NCBI GenBank assembly: GCA_044892505.1
Contig: CM097883.1
Coordinates: 216,380,001-216,444,000 of the forward strand
Direction of reading: 5' to 3'
Length of the DNA stretch: 64,000 bases
Source: Schmidtea nova
Lineage: Eukaryota
A program made the translations under genes and the position numbers. Below, piece after piece: positions 40,409 to 64,000 of this stretch. The notes under the pieces are model-generated. The model made no database searches and had not been told where the DNA came from. It saw nothing but the letters and a program-made list of their open reading frames with translations. How positions within the stretch are numbered: the stretch's first letter is position 1; every line of letters starts with the position of its first letter.

Positions 40409-40621
40409 ATGGGTCAATCATTACCTAATTTAAATTTAAACTTTAAATCTTCTTGTTGTAATGGAGAAGATCTGGACGAACCCGAAAGACGAAGCCGGTT
40501 TCGGTGGAGTCGAAAAGTTAAGGAAAAAAGTACAGAAGTCGAAACAACAGACACAAAGCTGGTTATCGGGGCAACTTGCATACAGTCTAAACAAACCGAT
40601 GCTGAAACGGTTTCCAACTAG
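40409..40621 (+). CDS. Possible small myristoylated protein overprinted on the integrase 5' end
   Basis: MGQSLP...SSCC; ATG 3 nt after the upstream stop; overlaps integrase in another frame. Confidence 0.4.
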   Translation: MGQSLPNLNLNFKSSCCNGEDLDEPERRSRFRWSRKVKEKSTEVETTDTKLVIGATCIQSKQTDAETVSN

Positions 40622-44108: not shown

Positions 44109-44158
44109 GCAGAGCTCAAACAGTATAAATAACCAAAGTTATTATTATTATTATAATT

Positions 44159-44535
44159 ATGGAGTAAGTTTTTAATTGAATAATTATTTATTTTTAATTA
44201 GTTCTATTCAGGTATTACAACAAGGTAAAAAACTATTGGGAAACCAATTTCTTGGAGTTTTTCCGTTAGATAAAATTCCTTATTTGAAAATGAATCAAGC
44301 CATCATTGTAAATACTCACACTTCTACTTTGGGCGGTGAACATTGGATTGCGGTTTACGTGAAACCGGATCGAATACATGTATTTGATCCCTTTGGATAT
44401 TATTATCCAAATTTACTTGTTCGAAAATTGCAAACTATTGGTAAACCTATTGTGTATAATAGAATTCGGTATCAACATCCATTAACAATCACTTGTGGAC
44501 AACATTGCCTTGCATGGCTAAAATCTATGTTATAA
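44159..44535 (+). CDS. Adenain-like cysteine protease; exons 44159-44163 and 44202-44535
   Basis: Catalytic H (GEHWIAV), D (FDPFG) and C (TCGQHC). A 38-nt GTAAGT...TTAG intron gives the start MDSIQVL. Confidence 0.9.
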
Positions 44536-44567
44536 ACAATTTAGTTTAATAAATGTTATTGTAAAAA

Positions 44568-44969
44568 ATGACTTGTTATTTTATTGATATGTACGGTTAT
44601 AATGATATTGGAGGAACAATTATTAAGGAATTATGCATTATGAATGTAAATAGTATTTTCACACCCTTGTATTATATATACAGTGATTTATCTTTCTGGC
44701 CTGATCGTATAGAATCGTTTGAAGGACAAGATTATTTTTGCCCAAAATGTATAATGGATGATATTGAAAATAAAGGAGCTATATTCTATGTTACAGATAA
44801 TGAAAAGTTGCAAGTTTTAAAGAAATATTTCCCGAAATTGAGATTAATTAAATATAATTTTAAAGAATTTGAAGATGTTCCAGAAAATATCTCATGTCCA
44901 TATAAAGACCATAGTATGTGTGCATATAAAGGATGCTTGTCTGGTGTAATTGATTATTTAAAACAATAA
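44568..44969 (+). CDS. Maverick small protein, possibly DEDD-exonuclease-like
   Basis: N-terminal IDMYGY...IKELCI and C-terminal CPYKDHSMCA resemble a recurrent Polinton ORF; assignment by eye only. Confidence 0.5.
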   Translation: MTCYFIDMYGYNDIGGTIIKELCIMNVNSIFTPLYYIYSDLSFWPDRIESFEGQDYFCPKCIMDDIENKGAIFYVTDNEKLQVLKKYFPKLRLIKYNFKEFEDVPENISCPYKDHSMCAYKGCLSGVIDYLKQ

Positions 44970-45475
44970 ATGTATTATTCGTGTTTTATTATTATTAATA
45001 TTAATATTATTAATATTTTTATAAACTTGCAGAATTCACATCCAATTTGCAGATTAACATCCATCTAGCTATACTTTTCGATAATTATAAAGAAATTGCA
45101 TGCAGGCACGCATGCAGACACTCAATTATTTCACATATAAATCGACTTGGGTGTATTCACATCTGCATCTACACCTATAAGATATTTCATAAACACTTTA
45201 GTCACGTAGTGTCTTTGTATCGTTGCATCCGACATGCATCGTGCAATATAACAAAGACATGATTCATACTTGGTGAGTGAATTATTAACACACATACTTG
45301 GTGAGAGATTTTTAACATACATACTCAGTGTGCACACATACTTTTTCTACCCTATCTCGCTTGTGATTGGCTCGTGAATAAAGTTTGTAATAAACGTGAT
45401 ATATACTATATGTTTTCATTATTTCGTCACAATTTAAACAATCTTTTAAAAATTTCAAATTATTATTATTAAACA

Positions 45476-46031
45476 ATGAACAACATTTCTCAATCGATTA
45501 AAGAAAATATCCGTAGGAATAGATTTGGTAATTTCTATTTTATTTATTTTATAAATTTTATAACAAATTAATTATAGGAAAAATGAATCTCAACATGAAG
45601 ATTTCAACCAATTTAAATACCGAAAAAGATACTGAAAAAGAGAATGAAAATGGTAAAAATTTTAAAAAATACTAATTTCATTATTGTTATTATTATTATT
45701 ACAGTAACAAATGTACAATTAACAACTCAATACTATGCAGCTAGCAGAAACGAAAGATTAAACGTTGATATCGATGGTAATTGTTTCTTTTATTTATTAT
45801 TATTAAATGATTAATTTAAAGCCGAAGAAACTTCCGAAATTAATATGCCCCTGATTAGGGAAGATCAAAATATGCCCCTGATTAGGGAAGATCAAAATAT
45901 GCCCCTTATTAGGGATGAACCCATGCCCCTTATTAGGGATGAACCCATGCCCCTTATTAGGGAAGAAAGTATGCCCCTTATTAGGGATGTTGCTGCACCA
46001 GAAGATGATCGCTATAATGGTCGGCAGAAAT
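45476..46031 (+). CDS. Multi-exon ORF with MPLIR(E/D) repeats; exons 45476-45527, 45578-45652, 45705-45776, 45822-46031 (3' end unresolved)
   Basis: Three GT-AG introns (50, 52, 45 nt) all in phase 1 keep one frame that matches ORF 45845-46096; probable further donor GTACGT at 46032. Confidence 0.6.
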
Positions 46032-46199
46032 GTACGTTTTTATTTATTTTTTATAAATTATTTATAAATTATTTATTTCAATTTTTTATAAATTAACTTT
46101 TATTGTACAAATTTTATTTATAAGTTCTATTTTATTATTTAATTATAACATCAAAGTTATTAAATAATAAAATAGTAATTATAAATAAATATTATACAA

Positions 46200-46490
46200 T
46201 AAAAATAAACTATGAAAATTTTATTTAAATGATCGATTTTATGACAATGAAACTATGAAAATTTTATTTAAATGATCGATTTTATGACAATGAAACTATG
46301 AAAATTTTATTTAAATGTTCGATTTTATGACAATGAAACTATGAAAATTTTATTTAAATGATCGATTTTATGACAATGAAACTATGAAAATTTTATTATA
46401 ATGATCGATTTTATGACAATGAAAATTTTATTATAATGATCGATTTTATGACTATGAAAATTTTATTAAAAAGATTGATTTTATGACAAT
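46200..46490. repeat. 43-bp tandem repeat (~6 copies) upstream of PolB
   Basis: Unit AAACTATGAAAATTTTATTTAAATGATCGATTTTATGACAATG at 46207, 46250 and onward. Confidence 0.9.
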
Positions 46491-46661
46491 CTTATTTTAT
46501 GAGAAAATATATTTTATGAGAAATGATAAATTATAATATTTTTATGATACATGACATTATTATACATCCGATATTGAATTTATAGTTTAAATTCAATATC
46601 GATTGTATAATAATTATTATATACTTTATAACATTATTTTTTATAATAAAATCTTGATATT

Positions 46662-49600
46662 TTGATAAATTTAGGTAAACTATACAGTTCTTATTGTAAT
46701 AGTACTTTTCATAATGACTGTCATAGTCTTATGGAAAAGTACTATTATTACAAATATAATAGTATTTTTTACCTTATTTGCCCTACTTGCAAAACTTTAC
46801 AAACATGCACATACATCGAATTCTACAATACACATAGAAACCATTTAACACAATTCAATGGTTCTAAAAAGAATTTGTTTAACTCCATTTTTGCTAATAC
46901 TATTAAACAAAATAATGTGGACAGTGTTCCCAAATTATTAAAAAGTAATGTGGACTGCGTTCCCAAACAAGTAATTATTAATGTGGACTCTGTCCCAATC
47001 TCTTGCAATGTGGACTGTGTTCCCAACCAAATAATCAATAATGTGGAATGTGTTCCCAAATTATTAAAAAGAACAAATACAGAAACAGTTTGTGAAACAC
47101 CAAATAAAATAGGTAAATTTGAGGTTATTGATATAAGTGACGATGATGACGATGTGGTTGTTATTTCGTCAGATGAAGAGGAAATAGACCCTATAGTTTT
47201 AAACTGTTACTCTGTTAAGCAAATAGGTTTAGGGTTAATATCTGTTGATTCTGATCTCAATAATTCGCACATCATCGTTAAGATGGATGTTGCACATTTA
47301 AATTTAAATAATCTTTCTGTTCCATCTCTTTTACTAGAAAAATTAACATCGATTATTTCTGCCATGAAATCTGTTAAGATCCAATTTTGTATAAAGGTTG
47401 AAATGATGAAAGACGATGAATACCAGTCTTTTGTCATTTCAAATTCAGCGCGTGTATGGACGACTGATTTCATTGATGAGGGCGTTACACATCTCAACGA
47501 AAAAATTATCCAAATGAACGAGAAGGGTTCAAATTGGAAATTAAATAAAATAGAATATATTAGTTTTGTAATAACGAAATACTCTGAAATTACCAGATTA
47601 AGAGGTAAAAAATTTCTTTCAACACCGAAATCTTTACTGAATAAGGATTGCATTATCAATGTCAATAACACCGACAATCTTTGCTTCCTTTATAGTGTCT
47701 TGTCTGTTAAAAATTATAATCAGGTTGATGATGAAATTCGACATTTACCAACAACTTATAACTTGACATCACTTCGCTTTGATATAAATGATATGCCAAT
47801 GAAGCTAAGTAACATTAGCAGATTTGAATTATCAAACCCCGGTTATGCAATTAATGTATTATCGTATGACGAAAATGCGTTAGTTGACTTGACTAATAAA
47901 AGTGAAGTGATGAAACATCCATTCATCGATATTATCTATAAAAGTAAAGTAGTGGGGGGCACTGTCATAAACCTACTTTTAATTGAAAATAAAAAAGAAT
48001 TTCATTACGCAGGAATATATAACATCGACAAATTTTTAAATTGTAAAACTTCGGCGATAACCCCAGTGAGAATTTATAATAAATGGTGTCCTAGGTGCTT
48101 GCATGGCTTCCGTAATTCAGATACATTCAAGAGACATCGTGGTCTTTGTGATGCCAACCAAATAGGCACAACTTTGTATACACTTCCTAATAATAAATTT
48201 TTACGTTTTAGCGACTGGACGAAGACAGTGACCCCTCCTTTTGTAATTTATGCCGATTTTGAGGCAATTTTACCTCGCGACTCGAAATATTACCAAAAAC
48301 ATTTGCCCATTTCTGCGGGTTTATTACTTATTAATAATTTCACTGGGGTTAAATTATATAAATCCTTCTATGGCCTTGATTGCGTTGCCAAATTCCTGCA
48401 AGAAATTGAAAATATAAGTCGAAAAATTGTAACGCCCTATTATTTCGCAAATAAAAATAAGCAAATAATATTAACCTACGAAGACATGCAACATTTTTCT
48501 TATGCAACACACTGCTACTTGTGTGAAAATATTTTAGTAAATCCTGTTAAAGACCACGATCACTTTACAGGTGCTTACCTAGGAGCAGCATGCAACGAAT
48601 GTAATATAAATAGGCAAATTCGACACACTTTGCCGATAGTTTTTCATAATCTACGGGGATATGATTTACATCATATCCTCAAATTCGGACTTTCTAAATA
48701 CGAATCGTGGAACATTAGCTGTGTTCCTGTCACCAGTGAGAAGTTTCTCAGTCTTTTTGCGAGAATCGGATCACTCACAGTGAAGTTTATCGATTCGTAT
48801 CAATTTGCCAGCGAATCTCTAAATAACTTAGTAAAAACTCTAACATCTTTTCCTCTTACTTCTTCGGAATTTACCGGGACTATTATCACCAGTAAGGGAA
48901 TTTTTCCATATGATGTTGCTACATCTTTATCTGTCTTGAGGTCGATCACTGAATTGCCGCCGATTTGGGAAGGTGTCGAAATTGCTGATTATGAAAAGGC
49001 AAAAGAAATATGGAGAGAAAATTCGTGTACCTCATTATTTGATTATATGATGGTTTACATGAAACTCGACATATTTCTTTTGGCTGATTATTTTCAACAA
49101 TTTCGTGCAAAGAGTATAGCTCATAATAAACTTGAGCCGTTGAATTTTTTGGGTATACCAGGTATGAGCTGGTGTTCTGCATTAATGACTTTGGAATCTC
49201 CTATCGAGCTTTTGCAAGATATGGAGATGTACAACTTTTTTGAGGGTGGAATCAGGGGCGGCCTCACTTTCGTTAATAAACATCATGTTAAATCAGGCCC
49301 AGATACAGAGTTGCTGTATATAGATATTAATAATCTGTATGGCTGGGCTCTTTCACAAAACTTACCGGACGGGGACTTTGTTTGGGTCACGGATGACCAC
49401 TTGCTTCATGACATCTTGTTGGAGTGCACTACGGTTGATTTATGTTCACTTAACTATGGTTATACCATAGAAGTGGATTTAGAGATACCGGCATCTATTC
49501 ACGACTTACTGGATGATTTACCAGTAGCTGCTGAAAAGATGTGTGTGCCAGGTTCGAAGGTGCATAAGTTGCTTTTGACGCACATGCCTAAGAAAAACTA

Positions 49601-50708
49601 TGTGCTTCATTGGCGACTTTTGCAGATGTTTCTGAGGTTAGGTGTTGTAGTGACCAAAATACATCGAGCTATTAAATACCATCAAAGTAGGCTTTTTAAG
49701 AAATACGTTGATACAAATACTGCTTTGAGAGCTTCTTCCACCACGAAACTCGACAAAAATTATTTTAAGTTATTAAATAACAGTCTCTACGGCAAAACCG
49801 TAGAGAATCTGAAAAAACGTATAAATTTAAGACTGTGCAATTCGGCACGTAAATTAATAACATATAGCAGTAGCCCGTATTTTAGGAAATCAACGAAAAT
49901 TGACCATAATCTTATATCAGTGCTTTTGAGGAAGGAGTCTGTGTGTTTAGATAGGCCAAGTTATATAGGACAGACGGTCTTGGACTTGTCTAAACTAAGA
50001 ATGTATGAACTACAATATATAGAGTTAGAGAAATATAGGAAAGAGTTTAATTGTAAGATTAATATTGCAGCAGGAGACACAGACTCCTTTTTTCTTGAAA
50101 TTGTTAATTGTAGGCTTTCTGTTCTTTTGCCCGCTATGGTGAGGGATCAACTTTTAGATACTTCGAACTATGACCCGAGCCATCCCTTATTTTCGCGTAA
50201 TTTGGATTCAGTTATAGGAAAGTTTAAGGACGAAAATAAGGGCTTCAAATATGAAGAGTGGGTTTTTCTTCGCCCTAAATGCTATAGTTTACTTGGCGAC
50301 GAGGAGTGTTTAAAAGCCAAGGGCATATGTTTGGCTACTGCGGGACTTAACCATTCGCATTACCTAGACTGTTACACAACAAGTAAAATATATAAAGTCC
50401 CGCAGTTTCGTATAGTCTCAAAAAATCATCAGGTTTATAGTGTCAAAAATACAAAAACGGCACTCAATTGCAACGACGACAAACGCAATTGGGTGTCGAA
50501 AAACAAAAGTTTTGCATATGGGCACTATAGGGTAGAAAATACTATTATAGGTTATGATGAAACAATTACCCCAGCCGAACCTGATGGATTTGATGATGAG
50601 GAGTTCGATGATGGCGAAACGGCTGAATCGCGCAGACTCCACGAATACCTGGTGAGGATGGAGCAGCAATTGCGTGATCAGCCATCTACATCCACCGGTA
50701 TATATTGA
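46662..50708 (+). CDS. Protein-primed family B DNA polymerase with a terminal-protein-like N-terminal region
   Basis: CFLYSVLS, YADFE, EndoVII-like KDHDHFTG, FHNLRGYD, YIDINNLYG, KLLNNSLYGKT, AGDTDS. N-terminal NVD(S/C)VP repeats. True start uncertain (the ORF-track start is TTG). Confidence 0.96.
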   Translation: MINLGKLYSSYCNSTFHNDCHSLMEKYYYYKYNSIFYLICPTCKTLQTCTYIEFYNTHRNHLTQFNGSKKNLFNSIFANTIKQNNVDSVPKLLKSNVDCVPKQVIINVDSVPISCNVDCVPNQIINNVECVPKLLKRTNTETVCETPNKIGKFEVIDISDDDDDVVVISSDEEEIDPIVLNCYSVKQIGLGLISVDSDLNNSHIIVKMDVAHLNLNNLSVPSLLLEKLTSIISAMKSVKIQFCIKVEMMKDDEYQSFVISNSARVWTTDFIDEGVTHLNEKIIQMNEKGSNWKLNKIEYISFVITKYSEITRLRGKKFLSTPKSLLNKDCIINVNNTDNLCFLYSVLSVKNYNQVDDEIRHLPTTYNLTSLRFDINDMPMKLSNISRFELSNPGYAINVLSYDENALVDLTNKSEVMKHPFIDIIYKSKVVGGTVINLLLIENKKEFHYAGIYNIDKFLNCKTSAITPVRIYNKWCPRCLHGFRNSDTFKRHRGLCDANQIGTTLYTLPNNKFLRFSDWTKTVTPPFVIYADFEAILPRDSKYYQKHLPISAGLLLINNFTGVKLYKSFYGLDCVAKFLQEIENISRKIVTPYYFANKNKQIILTYEDMQHFSYATHCYLCENILVNPVKDHDHFTGAYLGAACNECNINRQIRHTLPIVFHNLRGYDLHHILKFGLSKYESWNISCVPVTSEKFLSLFARIGSLTVKFIDSYQFASESLNNLVKTLTSFPLTSSEFTGTIITSKGIFPYDVATSLSVLRSITELPPIWEGVEIADYEKAKEIWRENSCTSLFDYMMVYMKLDIFLLADYFQQFRAKSIAHNKLEPLNFLGIPGMSWCSALMTLESPIELLQDMEMYNFFEGGIRGGLTFVNKHHVKSGPDTELLYIDINNLYGWALSQNLPDGDFVWVTDDHLLHDILLECTTVDLCSLNYGYTIEVDLEIPASIHDLLDDLPVAAEKMCVPGSKVHKLLLTHMPKKNYVLHWRLLQMFLRLGVVVTKIHRAIKYHQSRLFKKYVDTNTALRASSTTKLDKNYFKLLNNSLYGKTVENLKKRINLRLCNSARKLITYSSSPYFRKSTKIDHNLISVLLRKESVCLDRPSYIGQTVLDLSKLRMYELQYIELEKYRKEFNCKINIAAGDTDSFFLEIVNCRLSVLLPAMVRDQLLDTSNYDPSHPLFSRNLDSVIGKFKDENKGFKYEEWVFLRPKCYSLLGDEECLKAKGICLATAGLNHSHYLDCYTTSKIYKVPQFRIVSKNHQVYSVKNTKTALNCNDDKRNWVSKNKSFAYGHYRVENTIIGYDETITPAEPDGFDDEEFDDGETAESRRLHEYLVRMEQQLRDQPSTSTGIY

Positions 50709-51833
50709 GGTAAATTTATTTATTATTTTATTCATTTTCATTATTATTATTATTATTATTATAGACTATACGCCAATAGGAAAAAGAAGAAGAAAAATAT
50801 TAAGAAGAATATTGATGATTTTTACTATGAACAAAGCTTTATTTGGAATAAATTGAATGGAAATAAATTTTTTAATTTAAAATAATTGTTGTTTTTTCCC
50901 TATTGGGTTATATTTTTTAAATATTTGTTGAATTTTATTTTTATAAGTTTTTATTATTTTTGTTAATATTATATTTTTTCTATGNNNNNNNNNNNNNNNN
51001 NNNNNNNNNNNNNNNNNNNNNNNNNNNNNNNNNNNNNNNNNNNNNNNNNNNNNNNNNNNNNNNNNNNNNNNNNNNNNNNNNNNNNNNNNNNNNNNNNNNN
51101 NNNNNNNNNNNNNNNNNNNNNNNNNNNNNNNNNNNNNNNNNNNNNNNNNNNNNNNNNNNNNNNNNNNNNNNNNNNNNNNNNNNNNNNNNNNNNNNNNNNN
51201 NNNNNNNNNNNNNNNNNNNNNNNNNNNNNNNNNNNNNNNNNNNNNNNNNNNNNNNNNNNNNNNNNNNNNNNNNNNNNNNNNNNNNNNNNNNNNNNNNNNN
51301 NNNNNNNNNNNNNNNNNNNNNNNNNNNNNNNNNNNNNNNNNNNNNNNNNNNNNNNNNNNNNNNNNNNNNNNNNNNNNNNNNNNNNNNNNNNNNNNNNNNN
51401 NNNNNNNNNNNNNNNNNNNNNNNNNNNNNNNNNNNNNNNNNNNNNNNNNNNNNNNNNNNNNNNNNNNNNNNNNNNNNNNNNNNNNNNNNNNNNNNNNNNN
51501 NNNNNNNNNNNNNNNNNNNNNNNNNNNNNNNNNNNNNNNNNNNNNNNNNNNNNNNNNNNNNNNNNNNNNNNNNNNNNNNNNNNNNNNNNNNNNNNNNNNN
51601 NNNNNNNNNNNNNNNNNNNNNNNNNNNNNNNNNNNNNNNNNNNNNNNNNNNNNNNNNNNNNNNNNNNNNNNNNNNNNNNNNNNNNNNNNNNNNNNNNNNN
51701 NNNNNNNNNNNNNNNNNNNNNNNNNNNNNNNNNNNNNNNNNNNNNNNNNNNNNNNNNNNNNNNNNNNNNNNNNNNNNNNNNNNNNNNNNNNNNNNNNNNN
51801 NNNNNNNNNNNNNNNNNNNNNNNNNNNNNNNNN

Positions 51834-52916
51834 AGAAGAACGCGCGTTTCACGCGCGTTCAATGAGTACTGTGATTTGTCTTATAAAACAAGGAAGAAGA
51901 ACGCGCGTTTCACGCGCGTTCAATGAGTACTGTGATTTGTCTTAAACACACACACACACAATTTATCTCTGTACAAAATTATTATTATTAAATATTATAT
52001 TTCATTAGTCTTTGTTTCGTTGCACATGGATTGCATTGTCTTTGTTTCTTTGCACATGGATTGCATTGTCTTTGTTAATATTTATTGATGAGTCATACTG
52101 ATGAGTCATACTGATGAGTCATACTGATGAGTCATACTGATGAGTCATACTGATGAGTCATACTGATGAGTCATACCAATGAGTGATACTGATGAGTCAT
52201 ATTGATGAGTCATACTAATGAGTCATCCCAATGAGTCATACTGATGAGTCATTAAGAAAACCGTACTTACCTTTATATCCTTGTTTTGTACCCTTTGAAG
52301 GTTGAGCACCCACCATAGACCTTGGAAGGTATGACCATTGTGTGCACCCTTCAATTACCTTTTGTTTGATATGTATATTATAAGGATTGTAAAAGGTTGA
52401 AGGTTTTTGACCCCTTGAAGGTTAAGGATCCTCCATACACCTTCGAGGGTATGACCATCTTACTTACCTCCCAATTACCTTTTGTTTGATATGTATATTA
52501 TAAGGATTGTAAAAGGTTGAAGGTTTTTGACCCCTTTGAAGGTTAAGGATCCTCCATACACCCTCGAGGGTATGACCATTGGATAGACCTTTAAAAGACC
52601 TTTCGAATGATACCCTTGTTTGAAGGTCTGACCTTATCGGACCCTTGGGAATTTAAATTTAAAATTTGAATTTGAAATGAGTCATCGATGACGTCATAAA
52701 ATTCAAATTTGAAATGAGTCATCGATGACGTCATCGATGAGTCATCGATGAGTCATGTGATGAGTCATCGATGAGTCATCGATGAGTCATCGATGACGTC
52801 ATTTATGAGTCATCGATGACGTCATTTATGAGTCATCGGGGGGGGTCATGGATGACTCATCGATGACGTCATTTCCTTTGTTCTGCGATGACTCATGGTG
52901 CACACTTCTGTCTACT
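51834..52916 (-). repeat. Right TIR (at least 1083 bp; inner boundary in the N gap)
   Basis: Reverse complement of the left TIR. Confidence 0.95.
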
Positions 52917-53939
52917 TCCATTCGTTTGCGGGTGATATGGTGAAGTTCTCAATTTTGCTATTCTGAAATAGTTTGTCACCTCGTTCAATAACTCACTCAT
53001 AAAATTAGTTCCTTGGTCTGTGAGTATTTGTTTTGGAGTTCCGTATCTGCAACATATTTCTTCCACTAGAATTTTTGCTACGGTTTTTGCTCTTTGGTCT
53101 TGCATGGCAAATGCTTCCGGGAATTTCGTCAGATAATCCGTTATTACCAATATATAAATATTTCCGTTTAAACTTTCTGGTAATGGTCCTATTACGTCCA
53201 TTGCTATAGTTGTCATTGGCTCTGCTGGTATCGGCATTGGTTGTAGCGGGTTCTTCCATTTCTTCCCACTATCCTTTCTGGTTGCGCAAGTTAGACAATT
53301 TTTAATCCATTCCTTTATATCTTCTTCCATTGTTCGCCAATAATATTTTTGTCTCATACGATTCATGGTCTTTTTCTCGGACATATGACCTCCCAATTTC
53401 CCATCATGGTATTGGATCATTATCTCTTTCCTTCTGTTTTCCGGTAAACACATCAATCTCTTTTCCCCGTCTTGTATTAACAACCATCCTTTATTTATTA
53501 TGTAGCGATGTTGATATTTTCCTATATGTTCCTTTAATTCTTTATTATCTTTGAATACCTCCATGTTTCGAGATGTTAGGAACTCTATGATTTGTCCTAA
53601 TTCTTTGTCTTCTTGTTGATCTTTCTTAAGCTCGCTAAAATCTAAATCTTCTGCTATTAATACACAAATTCGTTGTACATCAGGATCGGTTAATTCCGGA
53701 AATGTCAGTCTTGACATACAGTCTGCATTCGCATTTGCTCGTCCTGATTTAAATTTTATGTCCGGTGAGTACTCCTGTAACTGCATTGCCCATCGCATTA
53801 GTCTACTAGATGTTTCCTTGTGCTGTCCTAACCATACAAGCGGTTGGTGATCTGTTGTTATGCAGATGATGTGTCCCCATAATAAATATTTAAAGTGTTT
53901 AATAGCTAATATAATCGCTAATGCTTCCCGTTCTGTCAC
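52917..53939 (-). CDS. Retroelement Pol middle part: RNase H end and integrase N-half
   Basis: TEREALAIILAIKHF, TDHQPL, GRANANADCMSR; HHCC zinc finger; IAMDVIGPL (D1), TDQGTNF (D2); ends YHPQTNG at the TSD. Confidence 0.93.
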
Positions 53940-55960
53940 TGAGTAATTTTCTCATGCTTTTTGAATGTTCGGCTATAATATCCGATTACCCGTTCCTTTC
54001 CTTCGTCGTCGTATTGTCCTAATACGGCTCCTGCTGCATATCCGCTTGCATCTGTTGCAAGTAGGAATGGCTTCTTGAAGTCTGGGTGTACCAATATGGG
54101 TGCGGTTATCAGTTTATCTCTCAATGTTTCAAAAGCTGTTTGTTGTTCATCTCCCCATATGAATGATACATCTTTCTTTACCAGCTCCTGTATAGGCTTT
54201 GCGATTCCGGCGTAATCTTTTATAAACTTTCTATAATATCCACATAATCCGAGGAATTCTTGTATTTGGGTTATTGTTTTTGGTACTGGGCATTCTTTTA
54301 CTTTGTCGATATTTCTAGGATCCGGTTCTTTTCCTTTTGCTGACACTATATGTCCTAAAAATGTAACCTTTTCTTTTGCCCAATCGCATTTTGATGGCTT
54401 GAGTTTTAACTTCCATTGTCTAAGCCTAACGAATACATCTCGAATATCCTGTATGTGTTGTTCAAACGTGCTAAAATAAATTAATAAGTCGTCTATGTAG
54501 ACCATACACTGCTTTATTCCATGGGTGACGAAAGTCATGCATCTCTGAAATGATGCTGGTGCGTTCGTTAATCCAAATGGCATCTTTCGAAATTGATATA
54601 GGTCTCTACCGATGGTAAAGGCAGTTTTCTCTTTATCTTCTTCCTTCATTTTTATTTGCCAATATCCGCTTTTCAGATCTAACGACGTAAAATATGCTGC
54701 TCCCTGTAAGGTTAATAACATTTCATTGATGTCCGGTAATGGGTAGGTATCTCTTTTTGTCACTGTATTCAATCTTCGATAGTCGATGCAGAATCTCTGT
54801 GTTCCGTCTTTTTTCTTTACCATTACCACTGGAAATTGCCAGGGTGAACAACTGGGTTCGATTACTTCTGCATCCAACATTTTCTTCACTTCTGCTTCTG
54901 CTACTGCTTTCTGTGCTTCCGCTAATTTGTACGGCCTTAATGCAATTGGTGTTTCATCTGTTAATGGTATTGTATGTAGTGTGACATCACATGTTCCTAG
55001 ATCTAAATCGGATGCTGCAAATATGTCCTTATACTCCATCAAAAGTTTTTCTAACTGCTTCTTTTGATCCTCATTTAATAATTCACTATCAATATTCCAG
55101 GTTGGTTCTTTATCTTCCTCTGCTCCTTCTATTGGTAGTTCGATATCCATCATTGGGGTTAATTTACCTAATCTTTCGTTTTCGTAGATTATTTTGTCCT
55201 CCTCGTCGAAATTTACCACGTTTATTGGGATTTCTCCATTATCATTTATGTTGACTAATCCTCTTGCCATTGGCAACGCTTTTCTTTTCTCGAATCTCTT
55301 ACTTGGTTCGAAAATCATATCCCCTTGGATTGTCGGGTCTATTTTTACGTAACATATTTTTTCCTTTCTTGCGGGTATTATCATTTGCTTTGAACTTGTC
55401 ACTTTGGCTTCTATTGCGCATATTTGTCCTGTGCGATCCTTTAGTCTCATTGTTCCGAGGTCGATTACAATCTCTTTAAATAGTGCTGGCATCAAATCTG
55501 TTCCGATAATGCAAGGTACGCTTAATGCTGGTATGACAGCTACGTACGTATCGATTTCCGTGTTTAAATGGCGTATTTTTACCCACCATCTTCCTGCTAC
55601 TTCTACAACTTCTTTGCTACATGCAATTACATGGACGTTTGTCCTTTCTATTTCCCGTCTTTGCTCTTGTGGTATCCATTTGATGTCGATGGCGGAAATG
55701 TTTGCTCCATTGTCGATCATTGCTTCGATTTCTCTTCCGTTAATTTCTATTGTCGTGGTTAATACTGGACCTGTGTTTGATGACATTACGGCGATCGTGT
55801 GTGTATCTCCTTGTGGATCTACGCTTCTACATCTTCTCATTTTATAATCTTCTGGTATCATGGGGTATACATTTGTCATTGGCATCATTTGCATTGTGCT
55901 ATTTTTCCTCCTTGTAGTGGTTCTTGATACATTGTTGGTGGAGGTGCGTAACATTTCCAT
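53936..55960 (-). CDS. Retroelement Pol 5' part: aspartic protease, reverse transcriptase and RNase H start; frameshift at ~53947
   Basis: AMIDNGAN, RFCIDYRRLN, LDLKSGYWQI, FGLTNAPASFQ, VYIDD, LATDAS. Adding one A to GAGAAAATTAC restores HEKNYSVTERE and joins the next ORF. Confidence 0.95.
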   Translation of the reverse strand: MEMLRTSTNNVSRTTTRRKNSTMQMMPMTNVYPMIPEDYKMRRCRSVDPQGDTHTIAVMSSNTGPVLTTTIEINGREIEAMIDNGANISAIDIKWIPQEQRREIERTNVHVIACSKEVVEVAGRWWVKIRHLNTEIDTYVAVIPALSVPCIIGTDLMPALFKEIVIDLGTMRLKDRTGQICAIEAKVTSSKQMIIPARKEKICYVKIDPTIQGDMIFEPSKRFEKRKALPMARGLVNINDNGEIPINVVNFDEEDKIIYENERLGKLTPMMDIELPIEGAEEDKEPTWNIDSELLNEDQKKQLEKLLMEYKDIFAASDLDLGTCDVTLHTIPLTDETPIALRPYKLAEAQKAVAEAEVKKMLDAEVIEPSCSPWQFPVVMVKKKDGTQRFCIDYRRLNTVTKRDTYPLPDINEMLLTLQGAAYFTSLDLKSGYWQIKMKEEDKEKTAFTIGRDLYQFRKMPFGLTNAPASFQRCMTFVTHGIKQCMVYIDDLLIYFSTFEQHIQDIRDVFVRLRQWKLKLKPSKCDWAKEKVTFLGHIVSAKGKEPDPRNIDKVKECPVPKTITQIQEFLGLCGYYRKFIKDYAGIAKPIQELVKKDVSFIWGDEQQTAFETLRDKLITAPILVHPDFKKPFLLATDASGYAAGAVLGQYDDEGKERVIGYYSRTFKKHEKITQ

Positions 55961-58900
55961 GCGTCGGCTGGATTCTTTTCGATGTATTGTGGTGCTTGGT
56001 TCTTATACACTTGTCCTCCCTTATAGTCGTCATCGTCATCATCGTCGTCACTCGAATCATTTTGGGTTTTATATCCTTTCATCCTCTCCCATAAACCTTT
56101 TCTTTCTCTCTTGAGCTGTTGTCTTGCTTGTTCGTCATTCATTATCTTTTTAAATTTTCGTCCTACTTCTTCATCTGTTCCCTTCATTTTTGCGAGTATC
56201 TTCAACAATCTCTTTATTCGATGTATGTCCTTTGAGTGTCCGTGCAACACCATCGTTTTCGCAAGGAATGGTAAAAACCCTACTACCATTTTCCAATTCA
56301 CTTTCTTTTCTCTCTTGTAGATGTCAAAACACGCGAGCATTTGCGTTATTATCACTCTGACGATTTGTATTATTAATATAACCCCCAGTATTCCAGCCAT
56401 CATTTGTCCGAATATCAGAAATCTTCCCCACATTGCTTTCATCATATTTTCTGTGGCTTTCTTGAAATGTGCTGGTGACAACAACAGCTCATAATTCGGT
56501 CCTTCTCGATAATTCGTTCCTCCCGTTATCGTTACGATATTTGACAGTAATGCTTCTCTTCTCGCTGGAAATAATATATTCTGCCTTGCTGCTTCTAAAT
56601 CCTTTGGACTATATATTCCGTTGTTTGAGACATCTACGTCGCTGAATTGCCTATCCTTTGACAACTGCATTAATTCGAATTCTCTTGGTGCTATCACTTC
56701 GGATCTTCCTGGGAACATAACCCATTTACCATCTGGTTTCTGATAAAGCGGTCCATACGCATTACTACAGTTGAATGGATTTGGTTCAAACCCTGGTGGA
56801 TTGATGATTCTCGTCACCGGTTGAACGTATCGTACTTTTCCTTTGTAGTCGATTTCTAACTCATTTGTACAGGTTCCAGGTTTCAACTGCGTTGTTGCTG
56901 CTAGCGACGCGTGTGTCTTTTCGCAAATGTATACGTACATTGCTTCTCCAACCACTCTTCCGAAATGTCCTTCTCTCAGTGGTAATAATGGCATCGCGCT
57001 ATCTGGATTCGTAATCGCTACGGCCAACTTCGTCTTTAATATTTCTCGATTCAGTATACAATCATTATTTATCAGATCGTAGTACACTTTTTGTAATGAG
57101 GCTTGTCCTCTATGGAATAGGAAATCCATTTTATTATTCACATACAAGTGTAGTTTGATATCCATTGTGTCGATTTTGGGTTTCGCATTCGGCACTTCTT
57201 GTTTTGACACATATATTCCTGGGTAATTCGTTTCGTATACCGTTGTACTACACTTAAGGGTTGCTTTCCCTTTTATGAACCTCATTCCCACATCCTGATT
57301 TGTGGTTATCAACACTGTTGGTGTGGCTCTCATCTCTATCCGTTTTTCTCTATGATCTGGTTTCAGTTGTCTTTTATTCTCTAAAGCTTCCTTGAGATGC
57401 TTTGCTCTAGCTTTGTCGTCATCGTCTTCTTCCTGGAACGTTTTTCCTTGAATTTCGTCGAACTGTGCTCCTTGTAGCAGTTGTAATTGACATTCGTTCA
57501 CCTTTGGTTTGTATACTAATGTTGACATTCCCGTTTGACACATGCTCCTGTCGATTTTACACATGGATAACGTTTTCATTTCTCCCGTTGTTGGTTCGAA
57601 GAATGCTTCGTAGCTTTTTAGTTCGACTATATACGTATCCATCACCACTAAGTTGGTTGCGGGTACTCCGAATATCGGGTAGGTTTCTCCATGACAATAT
57701 CCTTCTCCTCCCGTAATCCGTCCTGCTACATAGTATGTCTGTTGCAGCATCATTCCTGGCTTTCCTCTTATCTTGATTTTATCTCTTGTTGTTACTTCTC
57801 CATGTTTAAACAGTGCTTCGCAGTCTTCTCCTTGTAACATGATTGGTTCTCTTTCCGTTCCTGGCATGACAATTGCTGAATAATGTCCTCTCCCGCAGTA
57901 GAATGCGAATCTCGTCTTCTGCACTTTACATTCATTCACCATTGTCTTTATGAGTTCTGCTTCTTGATACACGTGGTACCATTGTTCCTTTTTAATCTTT
58001 TGCAACTCTACTGGAGTTGCATCTTTGCATTGCTCCGTACCTCTCAATGAATACTTTTCTCCTAACTTCATTTGGTCGCAATCAAACACTTCGAATGCTG
58101 TTGCGCTATCGGTGCTAATCATCCATATCAACATCATCATTATTATAGAGCTCAAATTCATTGATGACTTCGCGTTTCCTGTTCCTGCTTGTTCTTTTTC
58201 TAACTCTTCTAATATTTTTTCGAATTTCTTTTTCATATTCTTGGCTTGCGTTTTCTTCTGGTTAGTTTTTATAAATGTTTCCCATCCTCCTTTGTTAATG
58301 ACGTATGGTTCTATTTCTCTGGCTATAATTTTTGCGGTATTTTTTATATGTCTCTCTAATGCAGTGGGTTTTGGTCGACCTCTACTCAGTGTCAACAGAT
58401 TGTAGATCGTGTATGCAATGGCTATTACGTATTTATTATCAGTTTCCGCTCCTTCTGTCAATTTCTTTATTAACGTGGTGGTTCCTTGCCAGTCTAGATG
58501 ATTTGACTTCGTCTTTTCTTTTATGAATTCCGGTAAGATGGGTGCGATTGCGCTGTGTAGTGACTTCGCCTTTTCGCTTATTTCAGTTATCCGCCAGTAT
58601 TTTCTCAATTCCGGATCAATTATTGCCAATATTTCCATTATTGTTTTCGATATCCATTCCTCCCCTTGACATATTGGTGTTGTCTCTTTTTCTTTCATCT
58701 CCGCAATTTTATTTAGTTTCCTTAGGCATAATTCCCATTGATCTTGTCTCTTTTCATCTTTATTTCTTATAACTACAGTTGCTGGATCTGTCTTAGGTCT
58801 ACCTCGAGGTCGTCTATCCATTCCTGTACCTGTTTCCACAAACCTTGTTGCCCGTCCGGTTTCTTCCGTGACATCTCTTGGTTCGTTAGCTCTTTCCTCT

Positions 58901-61900
58901 AACCATCTTTCCATTTCTTGTGTTAATTGTATATTTTCGACATTCGCTCCTCTCGTTTCGTCTTCTGTCAAATCGTTTACTTCTTCTATTATTATTTCTT
59001 CTTCGACTTCTGTTTCTCCGGTGTTGGTTACTTGTATTGTCGTAGGTAGTTCTTGTATTCTTTCGAAAATGTTATCGTCTTTTTCCTTTGTTAATTCGGT
59101 TAGCTCTTCTATCATATCGTCGCTATCCGTCAAAATTTCGTCTACGTCGTATGGTTGTGGTGGAGTCATTTCTCTATTCCCTCTGGATGTTGTCTCAGAT
59201 CGTCTTGAACTTGTCCCTGGCGTTAGTACTGATTTCATCGGGCTCGGCGTACTTATACTTCCGTGTGGTTTATGGTTTTCTTCTTTACGTTTCAATGGTT
59301 GCCCCGCTATTGCTTCCACTGTCAGGGTATTCATGAGATCTAGTTGTGCTGGCGTTATTCCAATTTCCAAACTGTTATCTAATGATCGTCCTTGGTGTTG
59401 TAAATGGAATGGTGGTTCGTATCTCAATTTCTTTTTAATATCTCGAATTTTTTCTGCTATTCCAACCCACAATTCCTCCTTATCCTTGTTTGGGTATATT
59501 ATTCTTAAATGTACCTTTTGTGGAATTTCTTGCGAGAATTCTTGATTTCTCCATTTCCTGATTACGTGGTCTAGTTGTTCCGGGCACCACTCGTTAACTC
59601 TTTTATATTCCGCGATTGCTTTTGCTACTTTACGCAAGCATGTTATATCCTCCCCATTTACCACGAAAAAATCTGCGAGACCCTTTATTACTTTTCTCTT
59701 ACCGTGCGCATTAGTTTTTAATATTTCGACAAATTCTTCCGTTTTTTGCTTTTCCCTTTCTAGCCACATAGCCGCGGTTTCTGGTCCATCTAGGTCTATT
59801 GGCGTAGCTTTCCTTGTCACCATGCAAACTCTTCCTATCTCTGGTTCGCAGTCATCTTCAATTCCTCTTTTATATTCTTCTTCATATTCCCCTTCTTTTG
59901 GTTCCCAACATTTTCCTTTCTCGTTCCATTGTTTTTCTACGGGTGTTTGTATTCGTCTGTTGAGATTGAGTTCTTCTAATACGTTTTCCCACTCTGGCCA
60001 ACTTCGCCAATTTCGATAAATTTCTACTATTTGTTGTAATTTACGCACAACTTTTTTCCGTCGTTCCCGTTCTCTTTTCTCGTCTTTAGCAGTTTCTCTG
60101 GGTGTATCGTTCATTCTGCTAACGTGGATGGTTTGGTGATTATCCCATATACCGATTTTGTATAGTCGTCTCTCATCGTGATCCCATAATACATGTTCGT
60201 TGTATTGTATGATTATGTCGTCTTCCCATTCGTCTTCTGGTTCTCTTTGCACTAGTGTCTCGTTAATGACATTTATTAATTCTTTAATGGTGCAATCCGC
60301 TACCACTTCAATTTCTTTGGTGTCTTCATTAGTCAATTCTACTGAAATTTTTAGATCCGTTATTTGCCCTTGTCTAAACATTGTTTTTCCCATTTTTGCG
60401 ATTAATTTGTCGTGTGAGATCTGTGACCATCTCGTGTGGCTTGTGTCACGTATGCACTCAATACATCGTTTCAATTTCTCGTATTCGCTTCTCATTAACT
60501 CTTTTCTATGTTTTTTGACTTGTGGTATGATTTGTTCTATCAGGGAATTTAGATTCTTTCGTAAGACTCGTTCTTTCTCGTATTCTAACCGTGGTTTTAT
60601 TCTCCTTTCGAAGCACGTGTTTGCTTCCCTTGCAACTTCTTGTAGGTTCTCTTCTTCCTTTTCATCACATATTGATAACAGGGTTATTTCTCCTGGCCAT
60701 ATACCTGTTTCTACTAAGTGCGTTCTTTTCTTTACGAGTCTATTCTGCGAATAGATGAATTTGTTTTTATATGAGCTCCCTAGCCTGTTCTCTACCCATC
60801 TGTAGATATCGTCTGTAAATGGAGTTTTAATCCAGATTCTTGGTGTAGATGTATTTATTATTATTGAGATGGTGTAATTGAGGAGTGGTTCCTCTATTAA
60901 TTTCCCTACGTATCGATTCAACATGTCTACTTCCCGGTCTTGTAACCATTCTTTGTAGTTCATTTGTAATAATGCTTTCATGAATTTCCGGTATTGTTTC
61001 TTATCCATGAACTCTTCGTTATATATTACTTCTAGCGAGTTATCTAGTAATTTCTGGATTTCATCTACTTTTATCTGTGTAGGTTCTGAGGTCTTTACTA
61101 CTTTTCTCTCTTTATTTTCGTCTTCGGATTCGTTTAATATGTCTCCTGCTAGGCTACTGATGTCACTATCTTCTTCCTCATCGGAAAACTCTCTGGTGGT
61201 ATTTCTTAACATATTAATATGTGCTATTTGGTTCGTTTTCCCTTGTATATTCTCCGTTGGTTTTGTTTTGTTTTTTCTGATTTCTGGTGTTAGTTCATTT
61301 TTGTCCTCTATTACTTCGACTTTTTCCATTTTCTTTCCCAACTCGTCTATCTCTTTTAAACGTCTTCTTATCATTTTTCCTTCAAATATTCGCCTGATTC
61401 GGGTTTCGTGACGTATTGGTGGTGGAATTTCTTCTGGTTCTATTTCTTTAATAATCATCACGTTTCTTTTTGTTTCTACTACTCCCAAGTTTTCCCATAT
61501 GTCCGTTAATTCCAACTTTACTTTTGGCGCACCTTCTATTTGTAGGAACGCTTCTCTGGGCAGTTTCGTTACTCCTGGGACCATCTGGTTTACTTTGTTG
61601 AATAATATTCCCACTTCTTCTTTTACGTTATACTGGAATCTAAACACGGATTTGTTGGGCATGATTACCATCATTCCTCTTTTCCAAATCTCCTTTCCTT
61701 CTTCCTGGTTTATCTCGGTTTCCACTTCCTTTTTTGTTTCTTTTTCTACTTCTTCATCTTTTTGTACTATCTCTTTTCGACTTTCGTTGTCGGCTGGATT
61801 TGGGTCTATCGAATTTATTTCCGGTGTGGTTTCTTTCTCGTGGTTATCTGTTTGCTTTATTGCTCTCATCATGTTAATTCTTATAGGTTGTCGTTCTCTT

Positions 61901-63669
61901 TCTTTCTGTTTTTGTTCATCCTCTCTTTGTATTCTTGCCCATTCCTGAGCATGTCGTGCTTGACTTTCTCGATTCAATCGTTCGTTTTCGCTTTCTATTT
62001 TTCTCATCATGTTAATTTGCTGTTGATTGATTTGCGGATTTCCTCTCGTCGTATTGTTTATAAGTTCCGTCAACCTTTGAACTTCTTGCATCAAATGTAT
62101 TTCTTTGGTGGTGGTTTTGTTCTGACTATTGTTATTATTGACTTGTTGGTTCCCATAATCTGGTCGGTTTACGGTATTTGTTTGATTTCCGTAATTTGGT
62201 CGGCTCCCATTACTCTGCCAGTTTCCTCGCTGATTACTTTTTTGTCCGCAATTTCTTGAATAGTGACCAGGTCGTCCGCAATTAAAACAGATTATTGTAG
62301 AACATCTGCTTTCCGAGTGTCCTTTAACTCCACATTTTCCGCAATTCAAATTTTGATAGCATTCTTGCTGCCAGTGTCCCAACTTCCCGCATGTTTTACA
62401 TTGTTTTGTTTGTCTTTGAGGGTTGTAATTGTTTTGGTTTTCAAAGTTCTGCACTTTATTTCCTTCATTCCTTCGTTGAGGGGGTGGTCGGTTTAATTGT
62501 TGCGAATTTGGAATGTGATTGTTGAGATTTACCTCTGGTTCGGTTTGTGCTGTGTCCATGGCTAAATAAATTCTGCCCTCACTTCCTATCATATGCAATT
62601 CGAATCTGTTAGCTGTTTCTAACGCTTGATCAATGGTCTTGCATCCTTGGCATCCAACTTGCGCTCTTATGTCGGGTCTTCTTAATCCTCCTATGAAGAT
62701 GGCTGCCATTAACTCCTCGTTTATTGGACCTCCATCCTTGAATACCGATTTTGCTAATTTTTTCAGTTCACTTGCGTATACCGCATTAGATTCATTCATC
62801 TTTTGTTTCCTCATTGAAAATTCTATGAATGCCTCGCTTAGCACTTTATTTATTCCAAATGTTTGTTGGAAAAAATCCTTTATCGCTGTCCAGCTTGTAG
62901 GTGGATTGGTACCATTTTTCGCTTCCAAATATAGGTCCAATGCACTATCTTTCAAATATAACTGAATTCTGCTTACTGTTGTTTCCGCTTTCCACTTGCA
63001 TACTTCTACGAATATGCCAAATTCTTTTAAAAAGGTTTCTAATTTACTCGCATCTCCGTTAAACGGTTCTCCTGAAAATTTATCCTTTATTTCTTCTCTT
63101 GGTTCACCCATTTCAATTCCGCTGTCTTGAGTTATTTTACTTTCGTTTCCTCTTGTTTCTAGTTCGTTGTTATGTTCGTCTTCTGTTTCACTCGAGCTTG
63201 AATCGCTTTCTGTTTCTCTTATTACTTCGTTATCCGATTTTATACTTTCGTTATCACTCTCGTTGATTTCTATCTCTGGTTCTACCTCGTTTTCTACTTC
63301 TTCGATATTATCGTTGTTAGTTTCGTCGATCTCTCCTTCTTGTTCTATCTCGTGTTCTATTTCTTCGATATTATCGTTGTTAGTTTCGTCGCTTTCTATT
63401 TCACTTGTTTGGTTCTCCTTGGGTTCCGCTTGGTTTTCTTTGTTACTTGAGCTGTTGCTTACTATTGACAATTTATCGTTTTCGATAATCGATTTATCTC
63501 TTATTATTCTCCTCGCTTTACTCCCTTGTGGGTTCTTGTTGTTATCTTTGCCGGCTTTCTGCTTTTTTGTTGTTTTTGTTGTTGTACTAATTTTGTCTTT
63601 TTTGTTAATATTGCTGCCGACTTCCTTTTCCGTTGGCTTTACTACGACAATCTTTGCTCCTTTTCTCAA
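55885..63669 (-). CDS. ORF1 polyprotein (2594 aa): Gag, accessory domains and envelope glycoprotein
   Basis: Capsid-like region from MGEP (63111; FNGD...LETFL...LYLKDSALDLY); three CX2CX4HX4C knuckles at 62401-62248; signal-like MNLSSIIMMMLIWMIS then AFEVFDC; Cys-rich ectodomain and TM at ~56425-56330. No ATG at the ORF 5' end. Confidence 0.9.
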   Translation of the reverse strand: MRKGAKIVVVKPTEKEVGSNINKKDKISTTTKTTKKQKAGKDNNKNPQGSKARRIIRDKSIIENDKLSIVSNSSSNKENQAEPKENQTSEIESDETNNDNIEEIEHEIEQEGEIDETNNDNIEEVENEVEPEIEINESDNESIKSDNEVIRETESDSSSSETEDEHNNELETRGNESKITQDSGIEMGEPREEIKDKFSGEPFNGDASKLETFLKEFGIFVEVCKWKAETTVSRIQLYLKDSALDLYLEAKNGTNPPTSWTAIKDFFQQTFGINKVLSEAFIEFSMRKQKMNESNAVYASELKKLAKSVFKDGGPINEELMAAIFIGGLRRPDIRAQVGCQGCKTIDQALETANRFELHMIGSEGRIYLAMDTAQTEPEVNLNNHIPNSQQLNRPPPQRRNEGNKVQNFENQNNYNPQRQTKQCKTCGKLGHWQQECYQNLNCGKCGVKGHSESRCSTIICFNCGRPGHYSRNCGQKSNQRGNWQSNGSRPNYGNQTNTVNRPDYGNQQVNNNNSQNKTTTKEIHLMQEVQRLTELINNTTRGNPQINQQQINMMRKIESENERLNRESQARHAQEWARIQREDEQKQKERERQPIRINMMRAIKQTDNHEKETTPEINSIDPNPADNESRKEIVQKDEEVEKETKKEVETEINQEEGKEIWKRGMMVIMPNKSVFRFQYNVKEEVGILFNKVNQMVPGVTKLPREAFLQIEGAPKVKLELTDIWENLGVVETKRNVMIIKEIEPEEIPPPIRHETRIRRIFEGKMIRRRLKEIDELGKKMEKVEVIEDKNELTPEIRKNKTKPTENIQGKTNQIAHINMLRNTTREFSDEEEDSDISSLAGDILNESEDENKERKVVKTSEPTQIKVDEIQKLLDNSLEVIYNEEFMDKKQYRKFMKALLQMNYKEWLQDREVDMLNRYVGKLIEEPLLNYTISIIINTSTPRIWIKTPFTDDIYRWVENRLGSSYKNKFIYSQNRLVKKRTHLVETGIWPGEITLLSICDEKEEENLQEVAREANTCFERRIKPRLEYEKERVLRKNLNSLIEQIIPQVKKHRKELMRSEYEKLKRCIECIRDTSHTRWSQISHDKLIAKMGKTMFRQGQITDLKISVELTNEDTKEIEVVADCTIKELINVINETLVQREPEDEWEDDIIIQYNEHVLWDHDERRLYKIGIWDNHQTIHVSRMNDTPRETAKDEKRERERRKKVVRKLQQIVEIYRNWRSWPEWENVLEELNLNRRIQTPVEKQWNEKGKCWEPKEGEYEEEYKRGIEDDCEPEIGRVCMVTRKATPIDLDGPETAAMWLEREKQKTEEFVEILKTNAHGKRKVIKGLADFFVVNGEDITCLRKVAKAIAEYKRVNEWCPEQLDHVIRKWRNQEFSQEIPQKVHLRIIYPNKDKEELWVGIAEKIRDIKKKLRYEPPFHLQHQGRSLDNSLEIGITPAQLDLMNTLTVEAIAGQPLKRKEENHKPHGSISTPSPMKSVLTPGTSSRRSETTSRGNREMTPPQPYDVDEILTDSDDMIEELTELTKEKDDNIFERIQELPTTIQVTNTGETEVEEEIIIEEVNDLTEDETRGANVENIQLTQEMERWLEERANEPRDVTEETGRATRFVETGTGMDRRPRGRPKTDPATVVIRNKDEKRQDQWELCLRKLNKIAEMKEKETTPICQGEEWISKTIMEILAIIDPELRKYWRITEISEKAKSLHSAIAPILPEFIKEKTKSNHLDWQGTTTLIKKLTEGAETDNKYVIAIAYTIYNLLTLSRGRPKPTALERHIKNTAKIIAREIEPYVINKGGWETFIKTNQKKTQAKNMKKKFEKILEELEKEQAGTGNAKSSMNLSSIIMMMLIWMISTDSATAFEVFDCDQMKLGEKYSLRGTEQCKDATPVELQKIKKEQWYHVYQEAELIKTMVNECKVQKTRFAFYCGRGHYSAIVMPGTEREPIMLQGEDCEALFKHGEVTTRDKIKIRGKPGMMLQQTYYVAGRITGGEGYCHGETYPIFGVPATNLVVMDTYIVELKSYEAFFEPTTGEMKTLSMCKIDRSMCQTGMSTLVYKPKVNECQLQLLQGAQFDEIQGKTFQEEDDDDKARAKHLKEALENKRQLKPDHREKRIEMRATPTVLITTNQDVGMRFIKGKATLKCSTTVYETNYPGIYVSKQEVPNAKPKIDTMDIKLHLYVNNKMDFLFHRGQASLQKVYYDLINNDCILNREILKTKLAVAITNPDSAMPLLPLREGHFGRVVGEAMYVYICEKTHASLAATTQLKPGTCTNELEIDYKGKVRYVQPVTRIINPPGFEPNPFNCSNAYGPLYQKPDGKWVMFPGRSEVIAPREFELMQLSKDRQFSDVDVSNNGIYSPKDLEAARQNILFPARREALLSNIVTITGGTNYREGPNYELLLSPAHFKKATENMMKAMWGRFLIFGQMMAGILGVILIIQIVRVIITQMLACFDIYKREKKVNWKMVVGFLPFLAKTMVLHGHSKDIHRIKRLLKILAKMKGTDEEVGRKFKKIMNDEQARQQLKRERKGLWERMKGYKTQNDSSDDDDDDDDYKGGQVYKNQAPQYIEKNPADAWKCYAPPPTMYQEPLQGGKIAQCK

Positions 63670-64000
63670 GGGGATTACTTTTGTATTCTCAATTTTCTTG
63701 TCCTATCTCTTATCGTATTCTGATTCTTCTTGCTTGATTGATTGATTTGATTGATTTGTATATTTAAAATACAAAGGTCCTCAACGATACATTATTGTTA
63801 TCGTCGCGCTTTTATTCCCTTTCTTTCGGGATTACTTATTACTGGGTTTTCATTATTTCCCCATTCCCAGATTCTCCTTTATTTTTAGTCTATTTAAATT
63901 ATCTATAGACTGGTCACAATTATCTATTTATGTCGTAATAATTATCTATACTTTATAAATCAATTACTTTTCCCACAGTTGCCCAATTTATTGGTCGCTC

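Follow-up and report, generated by a model that had tools for sequence, protein, structure and literature searches.

Broken copy of a Burro-like Ty3/gypsy family that joins Gag, a Bcl-2-like domain, a gB-type Env and Pol in a single frame, probably translated as a membrane-threaded polyprotein

Planarian Burro elements are longer than 30 kb and encode one ORF of 4,873–5,140 aa, in which, according to the text of Arkhipova and Yushenova 2019 (PMC6431247), env is placed in frame between gag and pol. Chary and Hayashi 2026 (PMC13524379) report GAG-ENV-POL gypsy elements with a gB-type env from Nematoda, Bryozoa and Platyhelminthes, with six in Schmidtea mediterranea (Smed_errantivirus_1-6), and cite Sacco 2022 for nematodes and Dezordi 2020 for BEL/Pao; the main text of that article does not use the terms 'polyprotein', 'fused', 'single ORF' or 'in-frame', and discusses neither cargo domains nor processing. 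Both the gene order and the in-frame fusion are, therefore, in print, and the gag-env-pol layout, which the first-pass annotation of the present locus had considered new for a gypsy element, is not new. The literature searched gave no account of processing by signal peptidase, of Pol carried on an Env tail, or of FN3-like modules; such accounts may stand in Grohme 2018, Sacco 2022, the Repbase entries or the figures, which lay outside the reach of that search.

The window (the whole stretch of DNA analysed, 64,000 nucleotides) holds an element of this kind, the features of which are collected in Table 1. By description, it is likened to Burro/GYPSM1 as presented in the text of PMC6431247: shared are a length of ~30 kb with LTRs, one giant ORF, a Gag with three CCHC knuckles, a BCL2-like domain, an in-frame env matching mononegavirus fusion glycoproteins and then PR-RT-RH-IN, and ankyrin repeats and MATH/TRAF cargo are common to both. 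The differences concern the length of the ORF (~5,685 codons here; 4,873 and 5,140 there), the position of TRAF, which forms a downstream accessory ORF here but is found inside ORF1 or upstream in Burro, and the FN3-like membrane modules that follow integrase here, of which there is no mention in the text of the Burro account. Two further Burro domains, BIR (looked for in the larger ORFs) and dUTPase, gave no Pfam match, and of three segments considered as ubiquitin-like candidates, one matched Ubiquitin_4 (E = 0.049), the PR-RT spacer being without a match; the Burro paper used the more sensitive HHpred. The element is Burro-like, and is not assigned to any of Burro1-4. It is also a GAG-ENV-POL gB-type errantivirus in the sense of the main text of PMC13524379, sharing with those elements a Ty3/gypsy Pol, a gB-type env, the gene order and many near-identical copies; the feature is real and conserved. 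Compared by eye, about 128 of 156 positions agree between the env of one sister family in this genome (L131) and the published Smed_errantivirus_1 fragment, an agreement suggestive of a planarian host; the window env is similar to those of Smed_errantivirus_5 and 6, with which it has an insertion of roughly 10 residues in common.

Table 1. Features of the element and of the Polinton nested in it (window positions)
Feature	Position	Strand	Basis or remark
3' LTR, 3,148 bp	21742..24889	-	6 mismatches to 5' LTR
Accessory TRAF-like ORF: RING, TRAF zinc fingers, MATH	26910..28289	-	Pfam; marker 148 times in genome
Integrase end, ankyrin repeats, two signal-to-TM modules (7 FN3-like Cys/Trp repeats in all)	28861..35136	-	Pfam, hydropathy, model
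Polinton/Maverick: terminal inverted repeats, 6-bp target duplication, DNA polymerase B-like ORF, A32-type ATPase	35137..52916	.	Inside integrase
RNase H and integrase N-terminal/core part, up to Polinton	52917..53951	-	Pfam, copy comparison
Protease, RT, start of RNase H	53936..55900	-	Pfam, PDB; second private frameshift near 53,950
5' part of polyprotein frame: Gag, cargo, Bcl-2-like domain, env	55885..63702	-	Stop to stop; shortened by frameshift near 55,900
Env cytosolic tail, running on into protease in most copies	55900..56329	-	Copy comparison
Env transmembrane segment	56330..56430	-	Hydropathy
Class III fusogen ectodomain (chuvirus G/herpes gB fold)	56431..58095	-	Pfam, profile, predicted model
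Internal signal sequence; predicted signal-peptidase cut before 58095	58096..58161	-	Motif and hydropathy
Bcl-2-like domain with BH2-like GGW motif	58231..58668	-	Pfam in relatives, structure profile
Probable ubiquitin-like domain (weak)	60085..60369	-	Pfam Ubiquitin_4, E = 0.049
Gag: first Met 63111, retrotrans_gag, three CCHC knuckles	62240..63111	-	Pfam and motifs

The window copy, which is broken three times, is split within integrase by a 17.8-kb Polinton, and measures 47,604 bp from LTR to LTR, or 29.8 kb after subtraction of the Polinton. The paired LTRs have TG..CA ends and a 4-bp target duplication, the 5' LTR lying beyond the window end (L031:2198-5345), and over 20 nt, counting the CCA, the primer site is the complement of tRNA-Pro(TGG) genes in the same genome. 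At G000:C1:459,609,000-459,657,000 (L042), tRNA-Pro genes form a large tandem array with a period of 308 bp, and the tRNA end fitting the primer site has 899 matches genome-wide. By Pfam, pol is of the Ty3/gypsy type in the order PR-RT-RH-IN, and the best PDB matches of RT are to Ty3 RT (E = 8e-72 and 1e-70), ahead of retroviral RTs. Ankyrin repeats follow integrase (Ank_2, E = 1.6e-12), and the accessory TRAF-like ORF matches MATH_2 (E = 1.3e-21). Past the ankyrins, the region 28861-32300 (-) comprises two signal-to-TM modules with, respectively, four and three repeats of ~85 aa, each with invariant C, W, C, C; one of these repeats was modelled as a beta-sandwich (pLDDT 87), for which the nearest domains are FN3 (TM ~0.6, best E = 0.012), and the ESM Atlas supplied a lead only for the post-integrase region (0.86, FN3). 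A signal-like stretch after integrase is also present in relatives. An IAP-type RING ORF lies upstream of the polyprotein (L031:1400-1777, -); together with the TRAF-like, Bcl-2-like and ankyrin domains, it would make up a set of apoptosis/NF-kB-related cargo, as judged from the domains themselves.

Several further features surround the element. The Polinton has terminal inverted repeats of more than 1 kb, and also carries a TBP-like ORF (Pfam TBP, E = 9e-15) and an integrase-like ORF. A further element, which has a RING ORF and inverted termini of Polinton type (20199-21741 and L031:5346 to L032:836), apparently surrounds the retroelement, and, as the latter carries a Polinton in turn, three elements would be nested. 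A 2.5-kb inverted duplication (99.9%), at window 1-2565 and L033:1-2565, contains a polymerase B-like ORF of another Polinton. At 10293-16721 (-), the window includes a host gene with two beta-propeller Pfam matches and a 21-bp tandem repeat between long exons, which we take to resemble the splicing factor SF3B3/RSE1.

The minus-strand stop-to-stop ORF 63702-55885 spans 2,605 codons. Within it, Gag is marked by a retrotrans_gag match at aa 248-341 (Pfam, E = 1e-3) and by three CCHC knuckles at aa 435-485, and there is no stop between these domains and the hydrophobic stretch 58161-58096 (-), so that the frame holds Gag and env uninterrupted, as the first-pass annotation had said. The motifs it had listed were all found too: the hydrophobic stretch is followed by AFEVFDC..YSLRGTEQC, a Cys-rich ectodomain with 14 cysteines, WGRFLIFGQMMAGILG and a TM segment. 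This env matches Pfam PF24664 (Monjiviricetes_fusion) with an E-value of 5.7e-71, a resemblance far beyond chance. Two points call for correction: env had been given as the last ~740 aa, but there are 758 aa from Met58161 to the stop and 736 aa in the predicted mature Env; and env had been placed between gag and pol as a fusion to Gag, of which the in-frame position stands but direct adjacency does not, as ~1,360 residues of cargo separate the last knuckle (aa 485) from the signal (aa 1848). The last 150 of these cargo residues, directly upstream of the env signal, are Bcl-2-like: of five family members aligned, four score against Pfam Bcl-2 (best E = 1.8e-4), while the domain of the window copy gives no such match on its own, and a profile of the domain reaches Bcl-xL structures (E ~0.003), ranked behind two unrelated designed proteins. 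In a hydropathy scan, the signal (aa 1852) and the TM (aa 2438) stand out as the only strongly hydrophobic segments of the 2,605-aa frame, and pol has no noteworthy one; a moderately hydrophobic stretch, ~20 residues after the Env TM, is conserved and falls below the cut-off used.

A search for other copies yielded 3,619 candidates, 71 of which were scored; all 71 are 98–100% identical at the protein level over the query. The open frame around env runs to at least 5,600 codons in 21 of them and to more than 2,700 in 55, and in many copies gag-env-PR-RT-RH-IN-ankyrin reads as a single ORF of ~5,685 codons. Each of four long-ORF copies, picked by frame length, has one frame from Gag into env, and one from the Bcl-2 motif through RT and IN to beyond the ankyrins; relative to these four, the frameshifts near 55,900 and 53,950 are private to the window copy, the stop at 55885 lying behind the first of them, and a programmed frameshift between env and pol was rejected on this ground. 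An assembly chimera was also rejected, since the layout is repeated across the family. Among the 30 best-scoring loci (the window being one of them), 25 have no stop in the 562 codons before env, and 25 none from env through protease to the end of the examined stretch. Taking instead the first 30 of the 151 env-marker sites in order of position, which gives a sample with less bias, 22 have an uninterrupted frame over the 499 codons ahead of the marker, and the stops in the other eight are at eight different places. Most copies thus lack a stop or frameshift between gag and env, the result by which the proposed fusion was to be judged, and the fusion holds. By contrast, the notion of a 'structural' gag-env polyprotein set apart from pol is wrong, because env continues in frame into pol in the family.

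Exact 20-base markers occur genome-wide 151 times for env, 155 times for the region upstream of env, 145 times for protease and 148 times for TRAF, indicating a family of roughly 150 copies. On contig C1, the markers keep a constant distance in 65 of 68 pairs of env with upstream and in 61 of 68 of env with protease, and at G000:C1:590,840,000-590,960,000 four copies lie ~33 kb apart, resembling a tandem array. Depth over env is roughly twofold in contigs of four sequencing runs from one study; the sharing of env between families that this suggested was rejected, as marker counts are equal across env and its flanks, and a sister subfamily with a similar env and diverged flanks (L083, L092, L095) may explain the excess. 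No env-skipping joint was present in the contigs of these four runs, which carries no weight as to either expression or splicing. Pooled over pairs of copies, pN/pS comes to 0.09 in env (26 of 30 copies, those with indels or under 90% identity being left out), to 0.08 in the stretch of signal and Bcl-2 and to 0.12 in the upstream region (25 of 30 copies each), the pairs in all cases not being independent. Several other env-bearing families of this genome (L076-L079, L110-L139) have single ORFs of ~3,230–3,440 codons; in the two of these sister families that were examined, and likewise in public polyproteins, the order gag/Bcl-2-like/signal/env/pol recurs.

Env, searched with HMMER against 1.84 billion representatives, returned 900 matches, with long proteins scoring best. 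Thirteen of the top polyprotein-type matches were scanned: ten have a protease downstream of env, with or without RT, and the remaining three end with env or are fragments. Ranked below the polyproteins are stand-alone proteins of ~650–700 aa, including the G proteins of Tacheng tick virus 4 and Wufeng shrew chuvirus 2. The Env model (AlphaFold, from a 114-sequence alignment; pLDDT 89, pTM 0.71) finds chu-like and xinmo-like virus glycoproteins as its top Foldseek matches (E to 4e-34, TM up to 0.70), Tacheng tick virus 4 G being a top fold match as well as a sequence match. Among the PDB matches listed for the model, all are herpesvirus gB (E to 3e-14, TM 0.26–0.45); the TM-scores to solved gB being low, this match rests on E-values. 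When the 114-sequence profile was run against the PDB, 37 of 37 matches were to gB (best E = 0.0023), and single-sequence and 5-sequence env searches of the PDB gave nothing relevant. Word-indexed homologue searches found none with a near-length limit and two when longer proteins were allowed; the viral contig collection held no relative of env, and the ESM Atlas no usable match for it. Ten cysteines are kept in at least 90% of the 114 aligned sequences. On the predicted model, Env is a class III fusogen of the chuvirus G/herpes gB type, and the suggestion of a chuvirus-like, gB-type glycoprotein is upheld by the Pfam family, the gB-only profile matches and the Foldseek comparison with class III fusogens alike.

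The G proteins of chuviruses (Jingchuvirales) and of G-bearing BEL/Pao elements belong to the same Pfam family and have the same fold as this Env. Chuvirus-type G is, however, a stand-alone protein and only 20–29% identical, whereas the Env described here is embedded in a polyprotein; moreover, the retroelement host of the chuvirus-type env is BEL/Pao there (Dezordi 2020, as cited in the main text of PMC13524379) and Ty3/gypsy here. Membership of BEL/Pao was rejected for the present element, given the lack of BEL-type Pfam domains, the Ty3-type RT and the position of env 5' of pol. In a midpoint-rooted FastTree tree of 65 rows (all 61 selected proteins plus four from this genome), the window env clusters, with a support of 98, with all 12 polyprotein-embedded envs, three sister-family envs and four fragments, the stand-alone proteins falling elsewhere; with a midpoint root only, no donor or direction of env capture is implied. 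NCBI lists one env-pol polyprotein of this group (P0008) under a Flavobacteriaceae MAG, where it appears as a hypothetical protein; a contaminating animal contig is the likely source.

The junction in front of Env was compared across 18 polyproteins, 13 of them public and five from this genome. In all 18, a hydrophobic core is found at a fixed distance before the first conserved Cys; this core is short (about 11–15 residues), and is followed by a polar spacer and then by a -3/-1 site, where small residues occupy both positions in 17 of the 18, compared with a background of 6.6%. The earlier prediction of an internal signal-peptidase site thus agrees with the -3/-1 rule in the relatives, and the assignment of the hydrophobic stretch as an internal signal with a predicted signal-peptidase cut is well supported at the sequence level.

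Our main reading, which we would put at about three in four, is that the window contains a broken copy of a ~150-copy, 29.8-kb Burro-like Ty3/gypsy family with Gag, Bcl-2-like domain, Env and Pol in one frame, translated as what is likely a membrane-threaded polyprotein with predicted cuts by signal peptidase and protease. Host signal peptidase would cut in front of Env, the ectodomain of which would enter the ER lumen; Gag and the cargo would remain cytosolic, and the Env signal, lying where a Bcl-2 protein would have its tail anchor, would initially hold them at the membrane. PR-RT-RH-IN-ankyrin would hang on the cytosolic tail of Env, to be freed by the element's own protease on the cytosolic side, and Pol would, in this way, reach budding sites with Env, not via a Gag-Pol frameshift. 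Two further signals past the ankyrins would release the FN3-like membrane proteins, and Env would fuse the particles with new cells. The main doubt concerning the predicted topology of Pol is the moderately hydrophobic stretch after the Env TM: were it to span the membrane, the predicted sidedness of Pol would fail.

Env is produced from spliced or separately initiated RNA in Drosophila gypsy and in retroviruses, and an output of Gag, Env and Pol at 1:1:1 is unusual in Ty3/gypsy elements. This stoichiometry counts in favour of Env arising mainly from a message of its own, with Gag-Pol from an env-skipping one and the common frame secondary, as does the Met at the signal start of the window copy (58161). 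Such an arrangement nevertheless appears unlikely: Met58161 is replaced in five of 29 in-frame copies, nine of the 18 polyproteins lack a Met throughout the 43 residues preceding the core (some carry one inside it), and both junctions are in frame across families whose envs are only 36–40% identical.

The cleavage itself may be questioned as well, for Bcl-2 proteins have a tail anchor where the hydrophobic stretch sits, a position that favours an uncleaved anchor; Env would then be tethered at both ends, and cut solely by the element's protease on the cytosolic side. For gB-type ectodomains, the main text of PMC13524379 describes two kinds of flanks: a signal peptide with a TM, or a TM on each side. 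The short core, the polar spacer and the small residues of the -3/-1 site in 17 of the 18 relatives speak against retention of the anchor, which we regard as distinctly improbable. Finally, the broken window copy and the stops in many copies are what a decayed passenger without present function might leave, but this is barely credible, and already largely refuted, in view of the pN/pS of 0.09 for env and the ten cysteines kept across the alignment; in addition, the equal copy number of the env, upstream and protease markers (151, 155 and 145) implies that env is not being lost.

The membrane-threaded polyprotein has a parallel outside the retroelements. Flavivirus and alphavirus polyproteins lead from a capsid protein through an internal signal to a glycoprotein released by signal peptidase, and carry the enzymes beyond it in the same chain; the element likewise presents capsid, signal, glycoprotein and enzymes in one chain. 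This is a working analogy only, as there is no homology: class II fusogens and RNA replication are found there, class III and reverse transcription here. Extended further, the analogy would have these elements behave as flavivirus-like enveloped flatworm viruses, with six ER crossings, three freed surface proteins and RT/IN loaded through the Env tail, a proposal to which we would give slightly worse than even odds. The chain would amount to ~5,500 residues, and the freed proteins would be the class III fusogen and two FN3-repeat proteins, which is again tentative and somewhat short of an even chance; just as tentatively, the Env signal may have a second role, that of tail anchor for a Bcl-2 mimic by which Gag is tethered. 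If true, Env-tail packaging without a Gag-Pol frameshift would constitute a third way of loading Pol in reverse-transcribing particles.

Should the predicted topology hold, Pol would be packaged by way of Env and not of Gag, and host signal peptidase would serve a retroelement in the processing of one polyprotein. According to the text of PMC8532177, BURRO1 is transcribed and PIWI-repressed in S. mediterranea, its transcripts rising on PIWI knock-down, and native material is, therefore, open to examination. As a young family of ~150 copies with an env under purifying selection, in a genome that carries further env-bearing families, the element offers a natural system for studying a possible cell-to-cell spread of non-insect gypsy elements.
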